A DNA stretch of 35,812 bases from a virus (IMGVR_UViG_2693429554_000020:1-35812); one strand, 5' to 3'. Positions 15,309 to 34,444 are shown, counted from the first letter of the stretch. Program-made: numbers and translations. The notes: a model not told the origin generated them from the letters alone.

Positions 15309-17042
15309 TTAAAGCGAGCGGATCCCATAGGACTCAATGTGGTCAGACAGCGTGTCTTCTTTCTCGTACAGCATGGCTCTGCCAACCGCCATAATCAGCG
15401 CAACTGCACCATCGATTTTGTTTTCCGCCTGCTCTTTGACGGGCTTCACCACATCATCGTTACCCGGAATGGTTTTGCCGACCACGTTGCCGATACACCA
15501 GGTCATGATGGGATTGCCATCATGATGAAAGCGCCCCGATTCAATTGCCGCTTCCAGCTCTTTCATCGGGTCGGACATGTTGGTGTAGTTCTGAATGATA
15601 GTGATGGGGTTCAGGTCTTCATCAGCAAGGTCATGTGACAATCCGGTCGCCCCGAAGGGGTCGATGGGTGACTCACTGACCGGGCTGATTTTGTTCGCCG
15701 CTTTGGCCTCCTCGAGGATGTAGCGATAATCCACCTCCGCACCATCGGTAACGGTCAGAACGCCCATTTCCACCCATTTCTGAAAGCGTTCGGCTGTCCG
15801 TCGATCTTCATTTTTCTCGACGCTGTACACCGTGTCATACGGTACCCAGAAACGCGGGGCCACACTGTAGTAATGCGTTTTACCGTCAATCTCGCGGGTA
15901 TAAAGTCGCGCCATGCTGTTCATATCCAGCTTACGCGCCAGGTCAAAGGCCAGAATGCACGGCTGCCCCTCGAACTGCTCAAGGGTCAGTGATTTATCCT
16001 CGCAGCTCTGCCAGCTCACCTGGTTGAAATACGCCGAACGCGCCGACACCCAGATATTGAGGTGTTTTGTTTTAAAGACGTTTGCCAGACGGGCGTTATT
16101 TTTCGCACGCTGCTGCTGACTTAACAAAAATTCGCGATAAACCGACACGCCAATATTTGGATTGGCTTTTTCCAGCACCTGCGGGTCGGTCCAGTCGTCA
16201 CCTTCATCAACGGTATAGATGATCCCGAACAGTTCATCGTTGGGTACCGACCCGTTGAGCATCTCGATAACTTCCCGCCGCTTGTCGTAGCACGGCCCCT
16301 CAATGTTGTACCCGGCAGTAGTAATGGCCCACATCAGTGGCTGACGTCGCGCCCCCATCCCGGTAAGCATCGTGGTGTAAAGCGCATCGGTGGCGTGCTC
16401 GTGATATTCATCCACCACCGCACAGTGGGGTGATGATCCATCACCGGGGTTACCGATCAGCGGTTCAAACCGCGCGCCATCCTCCGGACGGTTCATGTTT
16501 GAGGCGTTAACCTCAATCCCGAACGCTTCCGTCAGCATGGGTGTGCGTTTACACATCAGTCGCGCCGGGCGAAAGACTTCCCACGCCTGTTTCTCTGTCG
16601 TGGCACCGGAATACACTTCCGCGCCAAACTCGTTATCACAGGCAAAACAATACAGGGCGACACCGGCAGAGATTGCCGATTTGCCGTTCTTACGGGGGAT
16701 TTCGGTATACACCTCCCGGAAGCGGCGCAGCCGGGTACCTTTATTGACCCAGCCAAACGCACAGCAGATCACAAAGAGCTGCCACGGCTCCAGCGTGATG
16801 GGCATCCGTTTGAATGCCCACTCACCCTTGGTATGCGGCAACAGCTGAATAAATTTGGCGGCCCGTTCAGCCAGGTCCTTGTCGAAGCGGTAACGAAACG
16901 ACTTACTTTTTTCCGCCATCAGGTCATCAAGATGGCGCTGGCAGGCCTGAATCACAAACTGGCAGGCCACAATCTTTCCGCGCACGACATCACGGGCATA
17001 CTGATTGGCTGCATTTACGTTGGGGTAAGATTTCCGGCTCAT
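15309..17042 (-). CDS. Terminase large subunit
   Basis: 577-aa ORF with P-loop-like PRKNGKS motif; follows the small subunit gene. Confidence 0.8.
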
Positions 17043-17055
17043 GATTCGATGATTT

Positions 17056-17550
17056 TCAGATTGTCAGAAACGGGTTAGTGGCTTTCTTCTTCCCCGCCAG
17101 GCCAATCAGACGCTGGCGGCTGCTGGGGTCGAGTCCGAGCATTGCCCCCGTGCTGCTCATCTCGGACTCCTGTTCTTTTTTGGCGGTCAGCTCCGGATTT
17201 TTGACCATGCCGCCCATTGCACCGGTGATGGTGTTGCCCTGTCTGGCAATATTTTTCACGGCACGTCGCCAGAATTCATAGGCCACACACCACCGCTCAA
17301 GTACCGCCAGGTCAGTCACGCACAGCAGGCCCTGACCGCAGAGTTCTTTGGTTGTCAGTTGCCACATGATCGTGGCGAGAGGGAGATCTTCTTCAGCGAA
17401 CCACTCCGGTGGCTCAACACCTTTGATGGGCGTAAAAACAGGTTCATCTTTATTCAGGGCTCGCTTGCCGGGGTTTCCGGCCAGCGCCTTGCGCGCCGTT
17501 GGCTTGGGGCGACGCCCGGAACGCCCCGCCGTTCCAGCCATATGCGGCAC
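17056..17550 (-). CDS. Terminase small subunit
   Basis: 164-aa ORF immediately upstream of the large subunit; basic N-terminus. Confidence 0.6.
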
Positions 17551-17666
17551 TCCTGGTTAAATTTCATTTTTCGCGGGTATAAAAAAACGATGGGGCGGGC
17601 AGTCCGGAAGACGTCAGGTCACAGGGATTTGACCCGCCCCTCCCCTCTGGCAATGGGAACTGGTTC
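17551..17666. other. Candidate cos / packaging-recognition region
   Basis: Intergenic between HNH and terS, the HK97-type cos location. Contains GGGGCGGG...CCCGCCCC inverted repeat (17593-17640) with a GACGTC palindrome in the loop and a flanking A7 run. Confidence 0.4.
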
Positions 17667-18017
17667 TTACTTCAGCCGTTCACGGGCCGTCTTCGCCTTA
17701 TGACACGGCCAGCACAGACTCTGCAGGTTACTGTCGGCATCGGTGCCGCCATGCGCTTTGGGAATGATGTGGTCAACGGTTTTCGCCTCACGCACCACAC
17801 CGGCACGCAGACATAACTGACACAGGCCTTTGTCACGCTTCAGCACACGTTCACGGATGGTATCCCACTTCGAACCGTAACCGCGCTGATGACGTGACAG
17901 GCCTGGTTTGTATTGCTTCCAGCCTTCGCTTTTGTGGCTTTCGCAATAGCCTGACGGGTCAGTAGTGGTATTGCGGCAACCGCGAACGCGGCAGGCTTTT
18001 GGTGTACGTGGTGGCAT
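17667..18017 (-). CDS. HNH endonuclease (terminase-associated)
   Basis: CQLC...DHIIPKAHGG...N...CWPCH motif. Start placed at ATG 18017 (MPPRTPK...) with AAGGAAA SD; the track ORF extends to 18104. Confidence 0.75.
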   Translation of the reverse strand: MPPRTPKACRVRGCRNTTTDPSGYCESHKSEGWKQYKPGLSRHQRGYGSKWDTIRERVLKRDKGLCQLCLRAGVVREAKTVDHIIPKAHGGTDADSNLQSLCWPCHKAKTARERLK

Positions 18018-18096
18018 TAATTGTTTCCTTAAGCCATTACGATGCGTCTGAAAATGAGTTAATCTGAAAATTCCTTCACTATGCGAGAGCATGACA

Positions 18097-18396
18097 ATGG
18101 TCATAGGACAAGAAGATCAGAAATGCTGCCCGGCTTGCAATTCAGATGCGACCTGGCAGAACCGTGATACCGCTTGGTTAATTAGATGCCCGATGTGTGA
18201 AACATTTCTCATCAGGAATTCCACCATTGAAATTTTGCGAAGTGACGTTGTGTATCGGACATTAGCTGGTGACCTTCTCAAACAAGAAGGTGGGTGTAAC
18301 TACATGCTTACAAGAGGAAGGCTTGCGAACTTCGCGAAAACCCAGCTCCCAAAATCAAAGTTTCAGGAATACTTCCCTGGTGACAACTACGAATAA
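18097..18396 (+). CDS. Small zinc-ribbon protein (hypothetical passenger gene)
   Basis: ORF 18091..18396 on the strand opposite the late genes; two Cys pairs (CCPAC...CPMC). Start at second ATG preferred on SD spacing. Confidence 0.35.
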   Translation: MVIGQEDQKCCPACNSDATWQNRDTAWLIRCPMCETFLIRNSTIEILRSDVVYRTLAGDLLKQEGGCNYMLTRGRLANFAKTQLPKSKFQEYFPGDNYE

Positions 18397-18436
18397 GCCA
18401 TTACAAAGCCCACCCGCAGATGAGCTTTGTAATGGC
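18397..18436. terminator. Perfect 13-bp inverted repeat hairpin between convergent genes
   Basis: GCCATTACAAAGC (18397-18409) and GCTTTGTAATGGC (18424-18436) with a 14-nt loop, between the zinc-ribbon ORF and the Rz1 3' end. Confidence 0.4.
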
Positions 18437-18693
18437 TACTGTGAGTTGCGTGACGTTTCTATCTTCCTGATACTGGCCTTGTCGATGTTGCACTGGCCCA
18501 GCGCCGAAAGCAGGCTCACATTCAGATCCAGACTGGCCCCATAGGTCAGCGGGTCGGGAATGACTGGCTGGGGCGTTTCAGTGGTCAGGCTTGTTGGCAG
18601 CGGTACCGCCGGAACCGGCACGTAAACTGTTCGCGTACTTCCGCAACCGGTCAGCAGCGGCAGCAGGCACATGACGTGAAGCACAATCATCAT
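18436..18693 (-). CDS. o-spanin (Rz1-like outer-membrane lipoprotein)
   Basis: Alternate-frame ORF overlapping the 3' end of Rz; start at internal Met gives lipobox LLTGC followed by a Pro-rich segment. Confidence 0.55.
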   Translation of the reverse strand: MMIVLHVMCLLPLLTGCGSTRTVYVPVPAVPLPTSLTTETPQPVIPDPLTYGASLDLNVSLLSALGQCNIDKASIRKIETSRNSQ

Positions 18694-18970
18694 CCGCAAC
18701 AGCCACTTTGATATCTTCCTGGGTTCTCTGTGACTCCAGTGCGATCTGCTGTTTTGCATGCTGGTTAGCCTCTATAACTGTATTGATGATTTGCAGTGAT
18801 TGCAGAACGTTACGGGTAATGGCAGTTGCTGATTCAGCATTTCGTACAGCCTCATCAGCACGCTCCTTTTCGTGCTGATATTTGCTGTAGTAATGTCCAG
18901 CAGACCAGATGAAGGAACCAATGACGCTAACAACGAAGGCAACAATAACCAGCTTATATCTCAGCTTCAT
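18578..18970 (-). CDS. i-spanin (Rz-like)
   Basis: 130-aa ORF with N-terminal TM helix, immediately after the endolysin gene, overlapping the Rz1-like ORF. Confidence 0.65.
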   Translation of the reverse strand: MKLRYKLVIVAFVVSVIGSFIWSAGHYYSKYQHEKERADEAVRNAESATAITRNVLQSLQIINTVIEANQHAKQQIALESQRTQEDIKVAVADDDCASRHVPAAAADRLRKYANSLRAGSGGTAANKPDH

Positions 18971-19430
18971 TTACTACCCCACCAGCTTTTTTAAATCGGG
19001 CAATCAGGTCACCGATTTTATGTTCATACTGACCGTAACCTGCACCAGGTAACGACGCCCAGATATTGCTGCAACGGTCGATTGCCTGACGAATACTGCC
19101 GCGGTCAATCATCGGTAAAGCACCACGCTCTTTAATCTGCTGCAGAGCTACAGCGTCCTGGCTTTCTGGAGAAAAATCTTTCAGGCCAAGCTGTTTACGG
19201 TAAGCATCCCACCAGCGTGAAAGAAGCTGGTAACGTCCGGCAGCTGTTGATTTGAGTTTGGGGTTTAGCGTGACAAGTTTGCGAGGGTGATCGGAGTAAT
19301 CAGTGAACAGTTCGCCACCAACAATAACATCATAACCGTGGTTACGTGTCGGTTGTCGCCCGTTATCCGTTCCTTCTGACCATGCCACCATATCCAGGAA
19401 AGCTTTACGCTGGGAATTTAGTGCCTGCAT
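18954..19430 (-). CDS. R: Endolysin, lambda R-type lytic transglycosylase
   Basis: 158-aa protein closely matching lambda R as I recall it (QRKAFLDM.AWSEGTDNGRQ.TRNHGYDVIVGGELFTDYSDHPRKLVTLNPKLKST...). Confidence 0.85.
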   Translation of the reverse strand: MQALNSQRKAFLDMVAWSEGTDNGRQPTRNHGYDVIVGGELFTDYSDHPRKLVTLNPKLKSTAAGRYQLLSRWWDAYRKQLGLKDFSPESQDAVALQQIKERGALPMIDRGSIRQAIDRCSNIWASLPGAGYGQYEHKIGDLIARFKKAGGVVNEAEI

Positions 19431-19433
19431 AAA

Positions 19434-19769
19434 TTACTCCTTCGAGCTACCAAATTTGTTACCGATTACTCGCATTGCAGCCCCACGAATAGCATCGACA
19501 CCGATCAGCCCCACGCCACCACCAATGGCAACAGAAAGCGATTTAGGCCATCCGACATATTCAAGAGCGGATGCAAAGGTCAGCGTCAGAGCGCCACATA
19601 GCAAAATCTCGAGCGTTTTTCGCTTCCAGCCACCACCACCGCCAAAATAGGCGATGCGCAAACCAGCCATAACGATCGACATAATCACTGCACCCAGCGG
19701 TGTGTCTCCACGCCACCAGCTCTGAAACAACTCCAGCCAGTCCGGCCAGGTATTTGGGTTATGAGGCAT
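19434..19769 (-). CDS. Holin (divergent lambda S-like)
   Basis: 111-aa ORF with about three hydrophobic segments directly upstream of R; loose pattern similarity to lambda S. Confidence 0.55.
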   Translation of the reverse strand: MPHNPNTWPDWLELFQSWWRGDTPLGAVIMSIVMAGLRIAYFGGGGGWKRKTLEILLCGALTLTFASALEYVGWPKSLSVAIGGGVGLIGVDAIRGAAMRVIGNKFGSSKE

Positions 19770-19845: not shown

Positions 19846-20898
19846 TTATTTCCCCACCAGTTCACTTACCTCTTTCACCGTCTGATTAAACCGCTCTGAC
19901 TCAAGTTCAACACCTAACGCCCGACGCCCCAGCGCCATTGCTGCTTTTATTGTGGAACCGGATCCCATAAAGAAATCAGCAACCAGATCACCAGGTCGAC
20001 TACTGGCATTGATTATTTGCCGGAGCATATCCGCCGGTTTCTCGCACGGATGTTTACCCGGGTAGAACTGAACGGGCTTATGCGTCCAGACATCGGTATA
20101 AGGCACGGAGACTGATACGGAGAAATAGCGCCGGAGAGATTTAAACTCATCCAGCAATTCAGAATATTTGCGATTCAGTGAATCATAAGATGCCACCAGC
20201 TGGTGGTGTGGTTGTTCCAGTTGTTGTTCCTGAAACTTCTCTGCCGCTATACGGGAAAACAGTGCCTGTAACTTCCGATAGTCAGCCTCATTCGGCAACT
20301 GCCACTGACTGGCACCAAACCAGTGGGAAACCATATTTTTCTTACCTGTGGCTTCGGCAATTTGTTTTGCCGTTATACCCAGTTCGGCACGAGCATCCCT
20401 GAAATACGATATCAGCGGTGCCATTATGTGCTGTTTGAGTTCCCTTTCTTTTGCCGCATAGCCGTCACTTTTGCCGCGATATGGCCCCTGGTAATGTTCA
20501 GCAAACAGAACGCGCTCTGTGGCAGGAAAATATGCGCGCAGACTTTCTTTATTACACCCATTCCAACGTCCGGACGGCTTCGCCCAGATGATATGGTTAA
20601 GCACGTTGAAACGTTCACGCATCATGATCTCAATATCAGATGCCAGGCGATGCCCACAGAACAGGTAAAGGCTTCCGGCAGGTTTTAACACCCGCCAGAA
20701 CTGGGCCAGACAGTGGTCCAGCCACTTAAGGTAATCTTCGTCCCCTTTCCACTGATTGTCCCAACCGTTAGGTTTCACCTTGAAGTAAGGCGGATCGGTA
20801 ACAATCAGGTCAATGGAATCATCAGGCAGGGACTGAATAAAATGCAGGCAATCAGCGTTGATTAAATCAACACTGTTTATTTTTACAGTATTTTTCAT
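19846..20898 (-). CDS. DNA methyltransferase, N6-adenine/N4-cytosine type (DPPY motif), orphan
   Basis: 350-aa ORF with IVTDPPY catalytic motif and C-terminal SAM-binding-like FFMGSGST; no adjacent restriction endonuclease gene. Confidence 0.8.
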   Translation of the reverse strand: MKNTVKINSVDLINADCLHFIQSLPDDSIDLIVTDPPYFKVKPNGWDNQWKGDEDYLKWLDHCLAQFWRVLKPAGSLYLFCGHRLASDIEIMMRERFNVLNHIIWAKPSGRWNGCNKESLRAYFPATERVLFAEHYQGPYRGKSDGYAAKERELKQHIMAPLISYFRDARAELGITAKQIAEATGKKNMVSHWFGASQWQLPNEADYRKLQALFSRIAAEKFQEQQLEQPHHQLVASYDSLNRKYSELLDEFKSLRRYFSVSVSVPYTDVWTHKPVQFYPGKHPCEKPADMLRQIINASSRPGDLVADFFMGSGSTIKAAMALGRRALGVELESERFNQTVKEVSELVGK

Positions 20899-21516: not shown

Positions 21517-22443
21517 ATGAAAGTTAGAAGCATAGGATTTACAATAAATAACAATAACAAAAATATTAATACCGTTGACGTAATGAATGCTTTTATCAAC
21601 GCATCAAACAGAGAACACAGTCGCACAGACTATACTCGTAAAATTCTCATTTCGGATGTGAATGATTTCTATTATGGATTAGTTGTCACATTCAGAAACC
21701 AAAAAAAGAACTGTAAGTCGCAATTTGTTGATGGTAAATTCCAGCTTAAAATTGAAGATCTTCAAGGAAGTGACAAACTTGCTAATTTCAACTTTTTCTT
21801 AATTAAAAAATCTAATCTTTCTGGTCTCTATATGTATCACCACGGGTCATGCAGTCTGAACACTCTCTTTTCTCATTTAGAAACAATAAGTAATGAATTT
21901 ATCAGAAATCAAAATAAAGAAGAAATAAAAAAACTTGGTGATAAACCAAAACAAAAAGAAGTAACTGCAATAAATAAAAAATACAAAGAAAGACTGACTT
22001 TCAGCCTTATGACAAATAAAAACAACATTCAGAGTGTTTTATGTCAATTCAAAGAGATTAAAAGCACAAGCTTTAAATTTAATTATATAGATTTTAAAGG
22101 TGGACCAATGACTGCGCTTGAACAATTTGTTAACACCACCACAATAGATATGAATTTTAATTCTAGCGACAGAACAAAAGTGCAACAACTATCTCAGAAT
22201 CTTTCAAATATTTATAATTCTATGAGTGGAGTTGCTAAAGCACAGGTTATTGCAGTAAACCATGCAGGAATAGAAAAAACCATTGATTTTATGAACTGCC
22301 CTGTTTTTTTTGAAACATACGATTTCGATATAATTGCCGATAAAGTCAATGGATTGACAAACGATAATTATACAACAAACCCTGTTTTTGATATGATAAA
22401 AGAAGAAATGCTGAACGGGACGAATAAAAATGCCTTTATATGA
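21517..22443 (+). CDS. Hypothetical protein, AT-rich cassette gene 1 (no family recognised)
   Basis: 308-aa ORF in roughly 30% GC DNA with Asn-rich N-terminus (TINNNNKNINT), opposite strand to the flanking phage genes, 14-nt overlap with the next ORF. Confidence 0.6.
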   Translation: MKVRSIGFTINNNNKNINTVDVMNAFINASNREHSRTDYTRKILISDVNDFYYGLVVTFRNQKKNCKSQFVDGKFQLKIEDLQGSDKLANFNFFLIKKSNLSGLYMYHHGSCSLNTLFSHLETISNEFIRNQNKEEIKKLGDKPKQKEVTAINKKYKERLTFSLMTNKNNIQSVLCQFKEIKSTSFKFNYIDFKGGPMTALEQFVNTTTIDMNFNSSDRTKVQQLSQNLSNIYNSMSGVAKAQVIAVNHAGIEKTIDFMNCPVFFETYDFDIIADKVNGLTNDNYTTNPVFDMIKEEMLNGTNKNAFI

Positions 22444-22978
22444 ATGGCTAATAAATAAAAGGTTGAGGTATCAGTACCTTACACTGCTTGCATTCTCGAT
22501 CCTGGCATTGCTTGCACTTTACCTATTGTACAGAAACACACCTAAAGTAAGTGTTAACTTTTTTGATTTTTATCATAAAAACTTACGAGGCTATCTCTTC
22601 TCCGGTTTTATTTCCGTGGGCTCATTTTTATTGAGCCTGCATACCTTTGTCATAATAAATTTACGCGATAAGGTTTTTGCAACTCAGGAATATAAGGAAA
22701 TTTATAGCATTGCCACTGGTATACCTATTGACAAAATCAATGATAGTGCACTTTATAAACCTTTAGACAATTTATCCTCATTTATTAATACATCAATATT
22801 ATGTTCTATCACAACAGCAATTGCACAATTCACTATTGGACTTTCAACTAATTTATATGCATGCTTATTTTGCGTATGGCTTGCAATACTAACGGTATTT
22901 CTTTTATTACATTGCCTCATCATAATCAGACAAAATATTAAAATTTTATTAAAGCAACAGAGAAAAAAAGGGGGGTAA
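22430..22978 (+). CDS. Hypothetical membrane protein, AT-rich cassette gene 2 (about four TM helices)
   Basis: 182-aa ORF with four hydrophobic segments, translationally coupled to gene 1 (ATG inside ...ATGCCTTTATATGA...), basic C-terminus. Confidence 0.6.
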   Translation: MPLYEWLINKRLRYQYLTLLAFSILALLALYLLYRNTPKVSVNFFDFYHKNLRGYLFSGFISVGSFLLSLHTFVIINLRDKVFATQEYKEIYSIATGIPIDKINDSALYKPLDNLSSFINTSILCSITTAIAQFTIGLSTNLYACLFCVWLAILTVFLLLHCLIIIRQNIKILLKQQRKKGG

Positions 22979-22990: not shown

Positions 22991-23332
22991 TTACAACATT
23001 GAAAGCACACCATCCAGAAAACCAAGAGCTGTTTGCAACTCTTTTCTTATTGTCCCATCAGAACACTTCTGCTTCTTTGCAATAGTTCTTAGTGAGATGC
23101 CGATAACAAAATGAGCAATAACCAACTCATACTCTTCGGGCTTATATTTCCGCAATCGCGCAACACAGCTGTCAATCATGATTCCTTCATCATCATCGCA
23201 TTGTTGGCGTGTTTTCTTTCCATGAGGTAGTAAACCTTTAAACCCTGCAGCAACAGGCTGCCAGTCCACACCACTGTTATCTGCTGCAGCCCATGCACCC
23301 CAGCGGTCCAATACTTCATACATATCACGCAT
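22991..23332 (-). CDS. Late-gene antiterminator Q (QuuD-like)
   Basis: MRDMYEVLDRWGAWAA...GFKGLL...CDDDE...CSDG matches the Q-family pattern as recalled; start at ATG 23332 with GGAGAAAG SD (track ORF begins at 23347). Confidence 0.7.
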   Translation of the reverse strand: MRDMYEVLDRWGAWAAADNSGVDWQPVAAGFKGLLPHGKKTRQQCDDDEGIMIDSCVARLRKYKPEEYELVIAHFVIGISLRTIAKKQKCSDGTIRKELQTALGFLDGVLSML

Positions 23333-23349
23333 CAACTTTCTCCACAAAA

Positions 23350-26366: not shown

Positions 26367-27308
26367 TCACCCCCTGAATCCTGCCGGGATCTGGCTGTAG
26401 TCCACGTTGTCGTAACTGGATTTGAAGTACGGGTCTTCGCGTTTTTCGGTGTACGTGCTGACGGACGGTGATAAGCGCAGGGAAAGCTCATCCCATTTTT
26501 CCCGCAACTTCGACGGGCTGAGCACGTTACGGCACCAGAACGGATCGCGGCTGACGCGGCTGTACATCTCGCAGATTTGTTTGTGAGTACGACCATCCTG
26601 CACACACATCAGGCGAATTTCGTTTGCCCAGGCTGTCCAGTTCGGTTCTTTGGGACGAACCACCTCGCCGTCACATTCAGCGGCTTGCTCGTACAGGGCG
26701 ATGATTTTTTTCCAGAGCCACTGTGCGCAGGTCAAATCATCCTGCGTTCCCCACTGGCGCTTTTTAGGGCTGAATACAACCGCATCAGGATGGCGAGTTA
26801 AAAAATCCTGTTCATCCGTCTGCGCGTCCGGTTGCGAAGCGTCCGGACGAGAAGGTTTTTTATCTGACGGATCATGTTTTGATTTTACTGACGGATCCCC
26901 GCCAGATTCTGACGGGTGAAAACCCGCTTTTTTGCCAGATTTCGACGCATCAAATTTTGACGGGTCAGATTTTGATGCGTCAGATTTTGATGGGTCAGAA
27001 TCTGACAGTTGAGAAAATGCCGCTGCCTGAAGCTTCGCAACGTTAAGCTGATAAACATTCGACGCATTGCGGTTACCCTGGCGACGCGCCTTACGCGTTA
27101 ACCAGCCTTCTGCTTCCAGCCGTGCGATAGCCGTCCTGACGGTACTCATCCCCGCGCCAATCTGACGGGCAATAGTTTCAATTGATGGCCAGCACACACC
27201 TTCGTCATTACTGAAATCAGCCAGGCGGGCCATAATTGCCACGCTGGATAATTTCATGCCTGACGCAGCACAACCATCCCATACATAGCCGGTTAATTTA
27301 GTGCTCAT
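26367..27308 (-). CDS. Replication initiator (lambda O-like, N-terminal HTH) with internal origin iterons
   Basis: 313-aa ORF after the cII-like region; repetitive SDSDPSKSDASKSDPSKFDASK linker encoded by DNA iterons; position equivalent to lambda O. Confidence 0.6.
   Translation of the reverse strand: MSTKLTGYVWDGCAASGMKLSSVAIMARLADFSNDEGVCWPSIETIARQIGAGMSTVRTAIARLEAEGWLTRKARRQGNRNASNVYQLNVAKLQAAAFSQLSDSDPSKSDASKSDPSKFDASKSGKKAGFHPSESGGDPSVKSKHDPSDKKPSRPDASQPDAQTDEQDFLTRHPDAVVFSPKKRQWGTQDDLTCAQWLWKKIIALYEQAAECDGEVVRPKEPNWTAWANEIRLMCVQDGRTHKQICEMYSRVSRDPFWCRNVLSPSKLREKWDELSLRLSPSVSTYTEKREDPYFKSSYDNVDYSQIPAGFRG
26860..27015. repeat. Iteron array (candidate origin of replication inside the initiator gene)
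   Basis: About eight direct repeats of a GATTTTGA(T/C)G(G/C)GTCA-like unit at roughly 15-18 bp spacing. Confidence 0.5.
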
Positions 27309-32964: not shown

Positions 32965-33314
32965 TGGAGCCATACAGCCTCACACTCGATGAGGCCTGTC
33001 ATTTTCTCAAGATATCCAGACCGACTGCCATTAACTGGATACGCACAGGGCGTCTTCAGGCAACACGCAAAGATCCCACTAAGAATAAATCTCCTTACCT
33101 CACAACACGACAAGCCTGCATTGCGGCTCTTCAGTCTCCGCTGCATACTGTCCAGGTGAGCGCGGGTGATGGCATAACAGAGGAAAGAAAATGTCACTCT
33201 TCCGCAGAGGTGAAATATGGTACGCCAGTTTCACATTGCCGAACGGTAAAAGATTTAAACAGTCTCTTGGAACAAAGGACAAAAGGCAGGCGACAGAACT
33301 CCATGACAAGCTAA
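32964..33314 (+). CDS. Excisionase-like HTH protein (AlpA/Xis-type)
   Basis: [33 protein letters not shown] motif; GAGGTG SD 5 nt upstream; 3' end overlaps the integrase start by about 124 nt. Confidence 0.5.
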
Positions 33315-34354
33315 AGGCTGAAGCATGGCGGGTCAGCAAACTTGGTGAAATACCTGATATAACGTTCGAGGAAGCGTGTGTCAGGTGGCTTGAAGAGAAA
33401 GCACATAAAAAATCACTGGACGATGACAAAAGCCGGATCGGATTCTGGCTTCAACATTTCGCAGGAATGCAACTAAGAGACATTACTGAATCAAAAATTT
33501 ATTCAGCAATGCAGAAAATGACGAACCGGCGTCATGAGGAAAACTGGAAACTCAGGGCAGAAGCATGCAGAAAAAAAGGGAAACCTGTTCCAGAATACAC
33601 GCCAAAACCAGCGTCCGTTGCAACGAAGGCTACGCATCTTTCATTTATAAAGGCCCTACTAAGAGCCGCAGAGCGTGAATGGAAAATGCTGGATAAGGCA
33701 CCAATTATTAAAGTGCCTCAACCAAAGAATAAACGGATCCGCTGGCTGGAGCCCCATGAAGCACAAAGGCTGATTGATGAATGTCCGGAGCCATTAAAGT
33801 CTGTTGTTGAATTTGCACTGGCAACAGGCTTAAGACGCTCGAACATCATCAACCTTGAATGGCAACAAATAGATATGCAGCGCCGGGTGGCATGGATAAA
33901 CCCGGAAGAGAGTAAATCAAACCGCGCAATTGGCGTTGCGCTGAATGATACTGCATGTCGCGTATTGAAAAAACAAATCGGGAATCATCACCGTTGGGTA
34001 TTTGTGTACAAGGAAAGCTGTACCAAACCAGACGGAACGAAAGCGCCAACAGTAAGGAAGATGCGGTATGACGCAAACACAGCCTGGAAAGCGGCGCTGA
34101 GACGGGCTGGTATTGATGATTTCAGATTTCACGACTTGAGACACACCTGGGCAAGTTGGCTGGTTCAAGCCGGAGTCCCGTTGTCAGTGTTACAGGAAAT
34201 GGGAGGCTGGGAGTCTATCGAAATGGTTCGTCGATATGCTCACCTTGCACCTAATCACCTTACCGAACACGCACGGCAAATAGACTCGATCCTGAACCCA
34301 TCGGTCCCAAATTTGTCCCAGTCAAAAAATAAGGAAGGTACTAATGATGTGTAA
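33191..34354 (+). CDS. int: Tyrosine integrase
   Basis: 387-aa ORF with arm-binding-like N-terminus ([15 protein letters not shown]) and C-terminal [11 protein letters not shown]...VRRYAHL catalytic motif; ends 15 bp from the tRNA 3' end. Confidence 0.85.
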
Positions 34355-34368
34355 CTTATTGATTTAAA

Positions 34369-34444
34369 TGGTGCCGATAATAGGAGTCGAACCTACGACC
34401 TTCGCATTACGAATGCGCTGCTCTACCAACTGAGCTATATCGGC
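34369..34444 (-). tRNA. thrW: tRNA-Thr (anticodon CGU)
   Basis: 76-nt cloverleaf read on the minus strand: GCCGATATAGCTCAGTTGGTAGAGCAGCGCATTCGTAATGCGAAGGTCGTAGGTTCGACTCCTATTATCGGCACCA; anticodon loop TTCGTAA. Confidence 0.9.

Follow-up and report, generated by a model that had tools for sequence, protein, structure and literature searches.

A zinc-ribbon gene and a hairpin of a lysis-junction family between the lysis and packaging genes of a lambdoid prophage

In phage lambda, the small accessory gene bor lies on the strand opposite to the late operon, 31 bp past Rz, and the two stop codons flank a perfect inverted repeat of 11 bp (GAGTTGCCCAT/ATGGGCAACTC). The accessory genes that lambda and Shiga toxin (Stx) phages carry at this spot, bor among them, have effects on host fitness or virulence, and added genes known as morons were reportedly defined for HK97 and HK022 by Juhala and co-workers and by Hendrix and co-workers, in both cases in 2000. 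The present analysis deals with the corresponding junction in a viral DNA stretch of 35,812 nucleotides (IMGVR_UViG_2693429554_000020:1-35812; hereafter the window, meaning the whole stretch), which corresponds to a complete E. coli prophage of the lambdoid SfV/SfIV/ST64B type. Between its lysis and packaging genes we find a gene for a 99-residue zinc-ribbon protein, encoded against the late operon, and a stem-loop directly after its stop codon. The reading that we favour, with a probability of roughly 0.55, is that of a moron cassette with one real gene, plus a hairpin of a larger family that serves as an RNA element of the late transcript at a convergent boundary.

The likeness to bor is one of layout: in both cases a small accessory gene stands antisense to the late operon, after the spanins and before cos and the packaging genes, and an inverted repeat separates the convergent stops. 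There is, however, no sequence relationship between the two genes, and the lambda hairpin falls outside the CCATTA family described below. Moreover, Bor is an outer-membrane lipoprotein whereas the window protein is a cytoplasmic-type zinc ribbon: inspection of its N-terminus (MVIGQEDQK) revealed neither signal peptide nor lipobox, and no match to Bor was obtained with Pfam, PHROGs or NCBIfam. The bor gene is among the few genes expressed in lysogens (PMC7067206). With the morons of HK97 and HK022, the locus shares the presence of an extra gene relative to close relatives, a distinct composition, putative transcription signals and a place inside the late operon, but here the candidate promoter and terminator are non-canonical, and the 3′ hairpin is shared with many cassettes and has its predicted RNA structure on the other strand.

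The gene and its cassette

An open reading frame (ORF) of 101 codons from its first ATG occupies 18091-18396 of the plus strand. As the initial annotation had described, it encodes a protein of about 100 residues with paired cysteines and runs against the late operon, whose flanking genes (holin, endolysin, Rz and Rz1 on one side; HNH, terS and terL on the other) all lie on the minus strand. Because the intact homologues are all 99 residues long and begin with MVIGQ, we place the start at the ATG of position 18097; the TAA stop is at 18394-18396.

18029-18437, no strand: putative moron cassette (about 410 bp), lacking in SfV, present in unrelated lambdoid phages
18097-18396, plus: gene for the 99-residue zinc-ribbon protein, stop included, supported by dN/dS and conserved length; the alternative ATG at 18091 gives 101 residues
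18127-18198, plus: codons of the CxxC-N16-CxxC zinc ribbon (residues 11-34), with invariant Cys and four predicted beta-strands

Conservation, which the initial annotation had put forward as a way to check the ORF, is indeed seen in diverged copies down to 47-53% identity. Among the window and four diverged copies whose DNA could be recovered, the ratio of nonsynonymous to synonymous substitution rates (dN/dS) is 0.07-0.14 with dS values of 0.6-1.7, and the substitutions concentrate at third codon positions (e.g., 9/5/27 and 17/10/36 by codon position). This pattern of substitution indicates a real gene under strong purifying selection.

The gene is nevertheless a rare one. A search of 5.8 billion protein clusters retrieved six relatives with 62-98% identity, and an exhaustive hidden Markov model search through 1.84 billion representatives yielded 4 hits, adding only P0007 (99 residues), P0008 (104 residues) and P0009 (869 residues). 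By these searches the protein is a new orphan of a very small and rare family and, because just 4 hits occur among the 1.84 billion representatives, there is no deeper family to lend it a function. The locus occurs at 99% identity or more in 32 of 5,426 complete E. coli genomes, an identical one being present in E. coli A17 (CP028757) and in the ST69 strain CP102488, and the gene or a 53%-identical relative in nine IMG/VR contigs; tblastn did not find it in 50,697 GenBank phage records, nor is there a copy in the species-representative genomes of GTDB, so that it has been found only in prophages, IMG/VR viral contigs and metagenome or read-assembly contigs. No feature listed under the 25 best matches corresponds to the ORF. 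One database copy, P0006 (148 residues, from an ENA metagenome contig), is frameshifted past residue ~59 and reads through the hairpin, being either a pseudogene or an assembly error.

Four cysteines (C11, C14, C31 and C34) are invariant in an eight-member alignment, likewise W20, N22, D24, E35, a DLLK motif and several C-terminal residues, and altogether about 20 non-Cys residues are invariant in the 99-residue family. The best of five AlphaFold2 (AF2) models, calculated from a shallow alignment, has a predicted local distance difference test score (pLDDT) of 84 and shows a four-stranded ribbon at residues 6-40 followed by helices at 41-49, 51-64, 73-83 and 86-92. The C-terminal part is basic and carries the motif ..L.TR..LA.FAK..LP...F..YFP. 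In P0009 this 40-residue C-terminal motif is repeated at least six times, with HTH_32 at 32.6 bits against a cut-off of 33.7. On these models we describe the protein as a predicted N-terminal zinc ribbon joined to a small basic C-terminal helical domain of helix-turn-helix-like character, which probably binds nucleic acid or another protein. P0009 itself is lysine-rich, with at least six tandem repeats of ~55 residues (...AKEKLxxEEYxxRFP), a repeat domain for which Pfam has no description.

SfV, SfIV, vB_EcoM-720R4 and their relatives match the window by megablast at 89-92% identity on either side of the cassette, in two pieces with a gap between: the homology of the SfV/SfIV backbone ends at 18017-18021 and restarts at 18458-18476 (18476 for SfV), and in SfV the space between Rz1 and HNH is of 26 bp only. 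In SfIV, 118970_sal3 and vB_EcoM-689R6, the same site holds other, unrelated inserts. Conversely, the block 18029-18437 is found at 78-83% DNA identity in the loci L003-L005, L006 and L008, the BLAST limits of the shared block being 18029-18434 against L003 and 18022-18437 against L008, and relatives with 53% protein identity occur in L019-L021. The cassette or its relatives (53-90% identical) thus occur in four other lambdoid backbones, always antisense at the lysis-terminase junction, and these backbones differ: L003 carries pRha, HNH_3 and GIY-YIG, and L019 carries Terminase_2 plus Terminase_6N with a phi80-like lysis cassette. The guanine-cytosine content is 0.44-0.46 over 18000-18500 versus 0.55-0.59 in the HNH and terminase flank.

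Absence from SfV, distinct base composition, recurrence as an antisense unit and a selected ORF make the interpretation of 18029-18437 as a horizontally mobile accessory-gene cassette, a moron, well supported by sequence comparison. The proposal of a small moron made in the initial annotation therefore stands in these respects. The stretch from the lysis genes to cos is a classic site for morons; this moron is of an ordinary kind, and its gene is new.

As for expression, the conserved 65 nucleotides before the ATG hold a candidate promoter and a Shine-Dalgarno-like sequence, and the left edge of the cassette carries a motif that repeats part of the hairpin.

18037-18065, plus: candidate weak sigma-70 promoter (TTACGA 18037-18042, N17, TAATCT 18060-18065)
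18085-18089, plus: Shine-Dalgarno-like GAGAG, 7 nt before the ATG at 18097, conserved as GCGAGA(G/A) in close copies
18030-18040, plus: left boundary motif TAAGCCATTAC, seen directly, a direct repeat of the left arm of the hairpin and its flank (18394-18404)

Both candidate hexamers are invariant across four diverged copies, the -35 reading TTACGN with N16/17 to TAATCT, and 32 nt separate the -10 from the ATG, as they do for the better -10 sequences TATGAT and TATTGT of L019 and L007. Another pair, TTGTTA/GAAWAT, was considered as a common promoter and rejected; although L006 and L008 have it, in the window it is interrupted by the edge of the cassette. The left boundary motif is kept as TTA[AC]G[CA]CATTACG in L003, L006 and L008, while the relatives at 53% identity (L019-L021) have TTAAGGCATTATCG in its place; this half-copy, TAAGCCATTAC, may be a hairpin relic or part of the promoter. 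Near the same edge (18013-18041, plus), GCCATTACG is able to pair with CGTGGTGGC, the complement of the first HNH codons, enclosing the HNH ribosome-binding site; being confined to this backbone, the pairing is probably coincidental.

A hairpin family of the lysis junction

The second element lies between the ORF and the o-spanin gene.

18394-18437, minus (strand of the predicted conserved RNA structure): stem-loop, member of the lysis-junction hairpin family by covariance model, folding energy and covariation
18436-18759, minus: Rz1/LysC o-spanin ORF (Pfam LysC, E=3.6e-18; PGAP name lysC), whose stop TAG 18436-18438 overlaps the base of the hairpin

The perfect 13-bp inverted repeat that the initial annotation had placed between the ORF and Rz1 is there, as GCCATTACAAAGC (18397-18409) and GCTTTGTAATGGC (18424-18436), and among perfect inverted repeats of 13 bp or more with a loop of up to 20 nt it is unique in the 35.8-kb window, none being seen in 200 shuffled windows. 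It extends to 17 nt with 94% complementarity and one mismatch (18396-18412/18421-18437), the arms being then 8 nt apart. The repeat fills the space between convergent stops, beginning right after the TAA of the ORF and ending with its last base within the TAG of Rz1. Elsewhere in the window, the sole other perfect short-loop inverted repeat of at least 11 bp is found at 26944-26981 (arms from 26944 and 26971), in the early/replication region.

A covariance model (R1) scores the window copy, one of the 13 sequences from which that model was built, at 55.6 bits on the minus strand versus 29.4 on the plus strand, and detects no other copy in the window. In the same sense, the predicted RNA folding energy is -31.6 kcal/mol on the minus (late) strand versus -22.7 on the plus strand. 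After a stem of 19 bp and a 4-nt loop, the minus-strand tail TTATTCGT has 5 T in 8; the plus-strand tail TACTGTGA has 3 T in 8, and what follows the hairpin on that strand, TACTGTGAGTTG, contains no U-run (the window tails being UUAUUCGU on the late strand and UACUGUGA on the opposite one).

A census of IMG/VR with a degenerate pattern, whose counts are lower bounds, places this hairpin in at least 120 viral contigs, of which nine carry the gene. Read as CCATTACA...GATAATGG, the family hairpin is downstream of the lysis genes and co-oriented with them in 112 of 112 orientable loci, and all eight gene-bearing loci have it right behind the stop codon, those with 53% protein identity included. 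The covariance model finds no family hairpin in SfV, SfIV, 118970_sal3 or lambda and, since the gene-bearing loci do have it, the hairpin would have come in with the cassette region. Further copies occur in mEp460, in Kati and, twice, in HK620 after hkbL, and phage Ayreon (MF807953) has one on the late strand after the lysis genes, annotated as "terminator". The copies of Ayreon, HK620, mEp460 and Kati agree with that of the window in family, position and orientation relative to Rz; they differ in not lying beside a zinc-ribbon gene, and the window copy differs from them in its inner stem and its closed loop. No Rfam family matches the hairpin and literature searches gave no match to its sequence, so this widespread family is apparently undescribed and modestly novel. 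Prophage small RNAs of the Pas/STnc100 type were also considered and discarded, as they map upstream of the lysis genes and their Rfam models have no match here. In the variant met most often, that of L027 (e.g., L027:5340-5460) and about 110 similar viral contigs, three consecutive stem-loops are seen on the late strand: a canonical terminator AGCCTCGCATTCGCGGGGC followed by TTTTTATTG, the family hairpin, and GGGATAACTTAACTGATATCCC followed by TTTT.

The 13 distinct variants that we aligned, eight of which had been located without the hairpin pattern, share an architecture made of a near-invariant outer stem (CCAUUA/UAAUGG), a 2x2 internal loop (CA/GA) and an inner stem of ~10 bp that varies between lineages and yet stays paired. 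Among 15 variants, that of the window alone has this loop closed (CA/UG, with C-G and A-U pairs), and it is for this reason that the repeat appears there as a perfect one of 13 bp. In the alignment of the 13, 95.7% of the cells are paired on the late strand and 8 of the 16 pairs are changed on both sides, with a covariation score of 0.515 versus 0.238 in shuffles (0/500), and sliding the partners lowers the pairing to 33-47%. When the alignment was segmented by hand, the inner stem of 10 bp proved 100% paired on this strand in 15 of 15 variants. Read on the gene strand, the helix is 83.2% paired with zero G·U, every wobble pair belonging to the late strand, and the late strand gives the more stable fold in each of the eight copies beside or close to the gene, as it does in 12 of the 15 pattern-found variants. 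The covariation, the placement of all wobble pairs and the lower late-strand energies argue that it is in the RNA of the late transcript, and not in the ORF messenger, that the hairpin structure has been conserved.

These observations bear directly on the suggestion that the hairpin is the gene's own intrinsic, Rho-independent terminator, which the initial annotation had offered beside a regulatory hairpin. The hairpin does follow the stop codon of the gene directly, accompanies it in 8 of 8 loci and still folds with -22.7 kcal/mol on the plus strand. But the plus-strand tail carries no U-run and a terminator scan is silent; all G·U pairs fall on the other strand; plus-strand folds at gene-linked loci can be weak (-10.7 kcal/mol in L003, -12.8 in L006); and more than 110 phages carry the hairpin without the gene. 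A private terminator is consequently unlikely. Half of the proposal survives, in that gene and hairpin keep constant company at these loci; our main correction to an otherwise largely right annotation is that the hairpin would be a shared boundary element of the late transcript.

The favoured reading, gene and late-transcript hairpin together, has its own difficulties, and the following points count against it. In the pattern-found copies the outer stem was fixed by the search pattern, so that only the inner stem and the eight independent copies are unbiased; the anti-late strand gives a slightly better fold in 3 of the 15 pattern-found variants; and in 14 of 15 variants the late-strand C·A of the internal loop is U·G on the ORF strand and pairs better there. 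Neither strand has a consistent U-tract across the family, and the commonest variant has a canonical terminator just 5′ of the family hairpin on the late strand; for these two reasons termination may not be the hairpin's job. On the side of the gene, a promoter scan found no consensus sigma-70 site upstream of the ORF and the terminator scan did not call the hairpin, while the candidate promoter hexamers match the sigma-70 consensus at 3 of 6 positions each, below the scan threshold. The Prokaryotic Genome Annotation Pipeline (PGAP) leaves the gene uncalled at the two RefSeq E. coli loci inspected, the remaining four AF2 models score 56-62 and leave one confident model of five, and searches of folds, families and defence systems gave no match in support of any function.

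The best fit for the hairpin is a 3′-end or insulator element at the start of antisense cassettes, perhaps also a weak terminator. In our model, the gene would be transcribed against the late operon from its own weak promoter in the lysogen, and its protein would bind nucleic acid or protein in phage-host or phage-phage conflict. The stem-loop would mark the meeting point of two convergent transcription units, where it could provide a stable 3′ end for the lysis messenger and/or weakly stop polymerase without the Q modification, separating late transcription from the antisense moron; Q-modified polymerase would read through it regardless. As a piece of shared homology, the hairpin may in addition allow single-gene cassettes to be gained, lost and swapped by recombination.

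Mosaicism at the hairpin

Several junctions coincide with the hairpin. Within the major family the left flank does not vary, and on the right at least three different flanks begin exactly at the hairpin edge, and in some loci two hairpins 300-600 nt apart bracket a single small ORF in either orientation, such as DUF2560 in L008, a 75-residue ORF in L006 and an opposite-strand ORF of 72 residues in L078. Pairs of late-strand hairpins 250-600 nt apart, with the look of cassette arrays, are seen in HK620 (L146), L078, L053, L024, L034, L008 and L006; the two HK620 copies (2242-2286 and 2497-2539) have no annotated gene between them.

The history of the window can be followed in L008, where window 18022-18437 matches L008:317-731 (gene and first hairpin) and window 18395-18507 matches L008:995-1106 (second, Rz1-linked hairpin and tail of Rz1), both matches overlapping exactly at the window hairpin. 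This hairpin combines a left flank of the gene-linked type with a core of the Rz1-linked L008 type, and the simplest history would be a recombination between two hairpins in which the intervening cassette was lost. The last ~13 codons of Rz1/LysC (18438-18476, minus) are unlike those of SfV Rz1 and homologous to the flank of the second L008 hairpin (995-1106); the recombination that acquired the cassette would therefore also have replaced the C-terminus of the o-spanin. Homeologous recombination in short flanking homologies is a documented source of lambdoid mosaicism (PMC2327257).

The same facts could be taken to mean that the hairpin works at the DNA level, as a palindrome bound by a protein or as a site-specific or structure-specific recombination site that mobilises cassettes, together with a third GCCATTAC half-site at the left end of the cassette and possibly with the 99-residue protein as the binding factor. 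In this regard, the outer arms CCATTA/TAATGG and the internal-loop bases are nearly invariant and the inner stem variable, TAAGCCATTAC occurs at both cassette ends plus an inverted copy, its left copy being kept in distant relatives, and the hairpin bounds both mosaic junctions and cassette arrays. A DNA duplex, however, leaves unexplained the compensatory changes and the wobble pairs confined to one strand; no recombinase is linked to the hairpin, and ordinary homologous recombination between similar hairpins accounts for the junctions equally well (PMC2327257). The motif GCCATTAC is present in 8 copies in the window versus 1.3 expected, but the five outside the cassette lie in coding sequence without hairpin context, look like chance and were treated as such. 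We regard a DNA-level site as quite unlikely.

An even bolder variant, to be taken as a long shot, would see the CCATTA hairpins as more than terminator-like spacers: they would be folded single-strand recombination sites, akin to the attC sites of integrons, and serve cassette exchange at the lysis-packaging junction of lambdoid phages. Between them, single small genes of either orientation, that of the zinc-ribbon protein included, would be captured and shuffled, and the protein might recognise the GCCATTAC arms on both sides of its own gene. The likeness is one of architecture only: an imperfect palindrome with conserved outer arms, unpaired bases, a covarying inner stem and strand asymmetry, which bounds single-gene cassettes of either orientation. 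Here there is no integron integrase or linked recombinase and no cassette-array promoter, and the sequences are different.

Function of the protein and prophage context

One proposal for what the protein does comes from the restriction-alleviation proteins of the Lar/RalR type, which are likewise small and prophage-encoded. For three members of the family, Lar_restr_allev is the best Pfam match (E=0.0046, 1.2e-4 and 2.1e-4), TIGR03655 (anti_R_Lar) also matches weakly, a "restriction alleviation protein" of BFVD aligned across 43 columns, and anti-restriction would be a plausible job for a prophage accessory gene. C9, C12, C30 and C33 of RalR align to the zinc-ribbon cysteine region of the window protein, with CxxC...CxxC in both. 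Yet all these scores stay below the curated cut-offs (17.6, 22.7 and 21.9 bits versus 28.6 for PF14354; 14 versus 39.6 for TIGR03655), and hhalign gives E. coli RalR a probability of 39% over 30 zinc-ribbon columns only. Moreover, the likeness to Lar/RalR (PF14354, TIGR03655) is confined to a ribbon segment of ~30 residues and does not reach the C-terminal parts: the ERWNKR helix of RalR is missing from the 99-residue protein, which has instead a 60-residue domain that Lar lacks. By sequence the ribbon is Lar-like but membership of the Lar family is not demonstrable, and we hold such a role to be very unlikely. Pfam, PHROGs, NCBIfam and PADLOC return only generic, sub-threshold zinc-ribbon matches for the protein. 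By analogy with other genes at this position, the gene may reasonably be taken as a candidate for a small anti-phage, anti-defence or regulatory factor.

That the ORF might be a chance frame in a spacer where only the hairpin matters, as a terminator on the Rz1 side, is scarcely credible: the ORF does have no PGAP call at the RefSeq E. coli loci inspected, no family, fold or defence match and no strong promoter, and P0006 is frameshifted, but the substitution pattern (dN/dS 0.07-0.14, third-position changes) already contradicts it, and the 99-residue frame stays intact down to 47-53% identity with four Cys and ~20 other residues invariant.

Minus-strand genes on both sides of the cassette are as follows.

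22991-23347, minus: Q antiterminator gene
19846-20898, minus: DNA methylase gene
19434-19769, minus: holin
18954-19430, minus: endolysin
18578-18970, minus: Rz
17667-18017, minus: HNH endonuclease gene, first on the packaging side and divergent from the moron (Pfam HNH, E=3.6e-16; PGAP start at window 18017; homologue of SfV orf53)
17056-17550, minus: P27-type small terminase (terS)
15309-17042, minus: large terminase (terL)

Because the deposited ends (right ends) of both linear genomes, SfV and SfIV, map to window 17609, cos is probably located between HNH and terS (17551-17666, about 17609), some 420 bp from the cassette. This 116-bp gap, from the HNH stop to the terS start, contains a G/C-rich stretch, GGGGCGGGC...GCCCGCCCC, that adjoins 17609.

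In lambdoid phages, Stx and other cargo sit between Q and the lysis genes. In the window, two overlapping plus-strand ORFs of 308 and 182 residues (21517-22443 and 22430-22978) lie between the Q antiterminator gene and the methylase and lysis genes; neither has a Pfam or PADLOC match, and by position the pair is a candidate accessory or defence module. Near the end of the window, a tRNA gene (34372-34444, minus; 71.8 bits in Rfam) adjoins an integrase-sized ORF (33191-34354) and is the likely attachment site of the prophage.

Altogether, neither the gene nor the hairpin overturns current views of phage genome organisation. With the gene, a rare, selectively maintained orphan is added to this moron hot spot. 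The hairpin, a by-product of the analysis, has the more general bearing and may explain both how late messengers are punctuated after the lysis genes and how small cassettes are swapped at this boundary.

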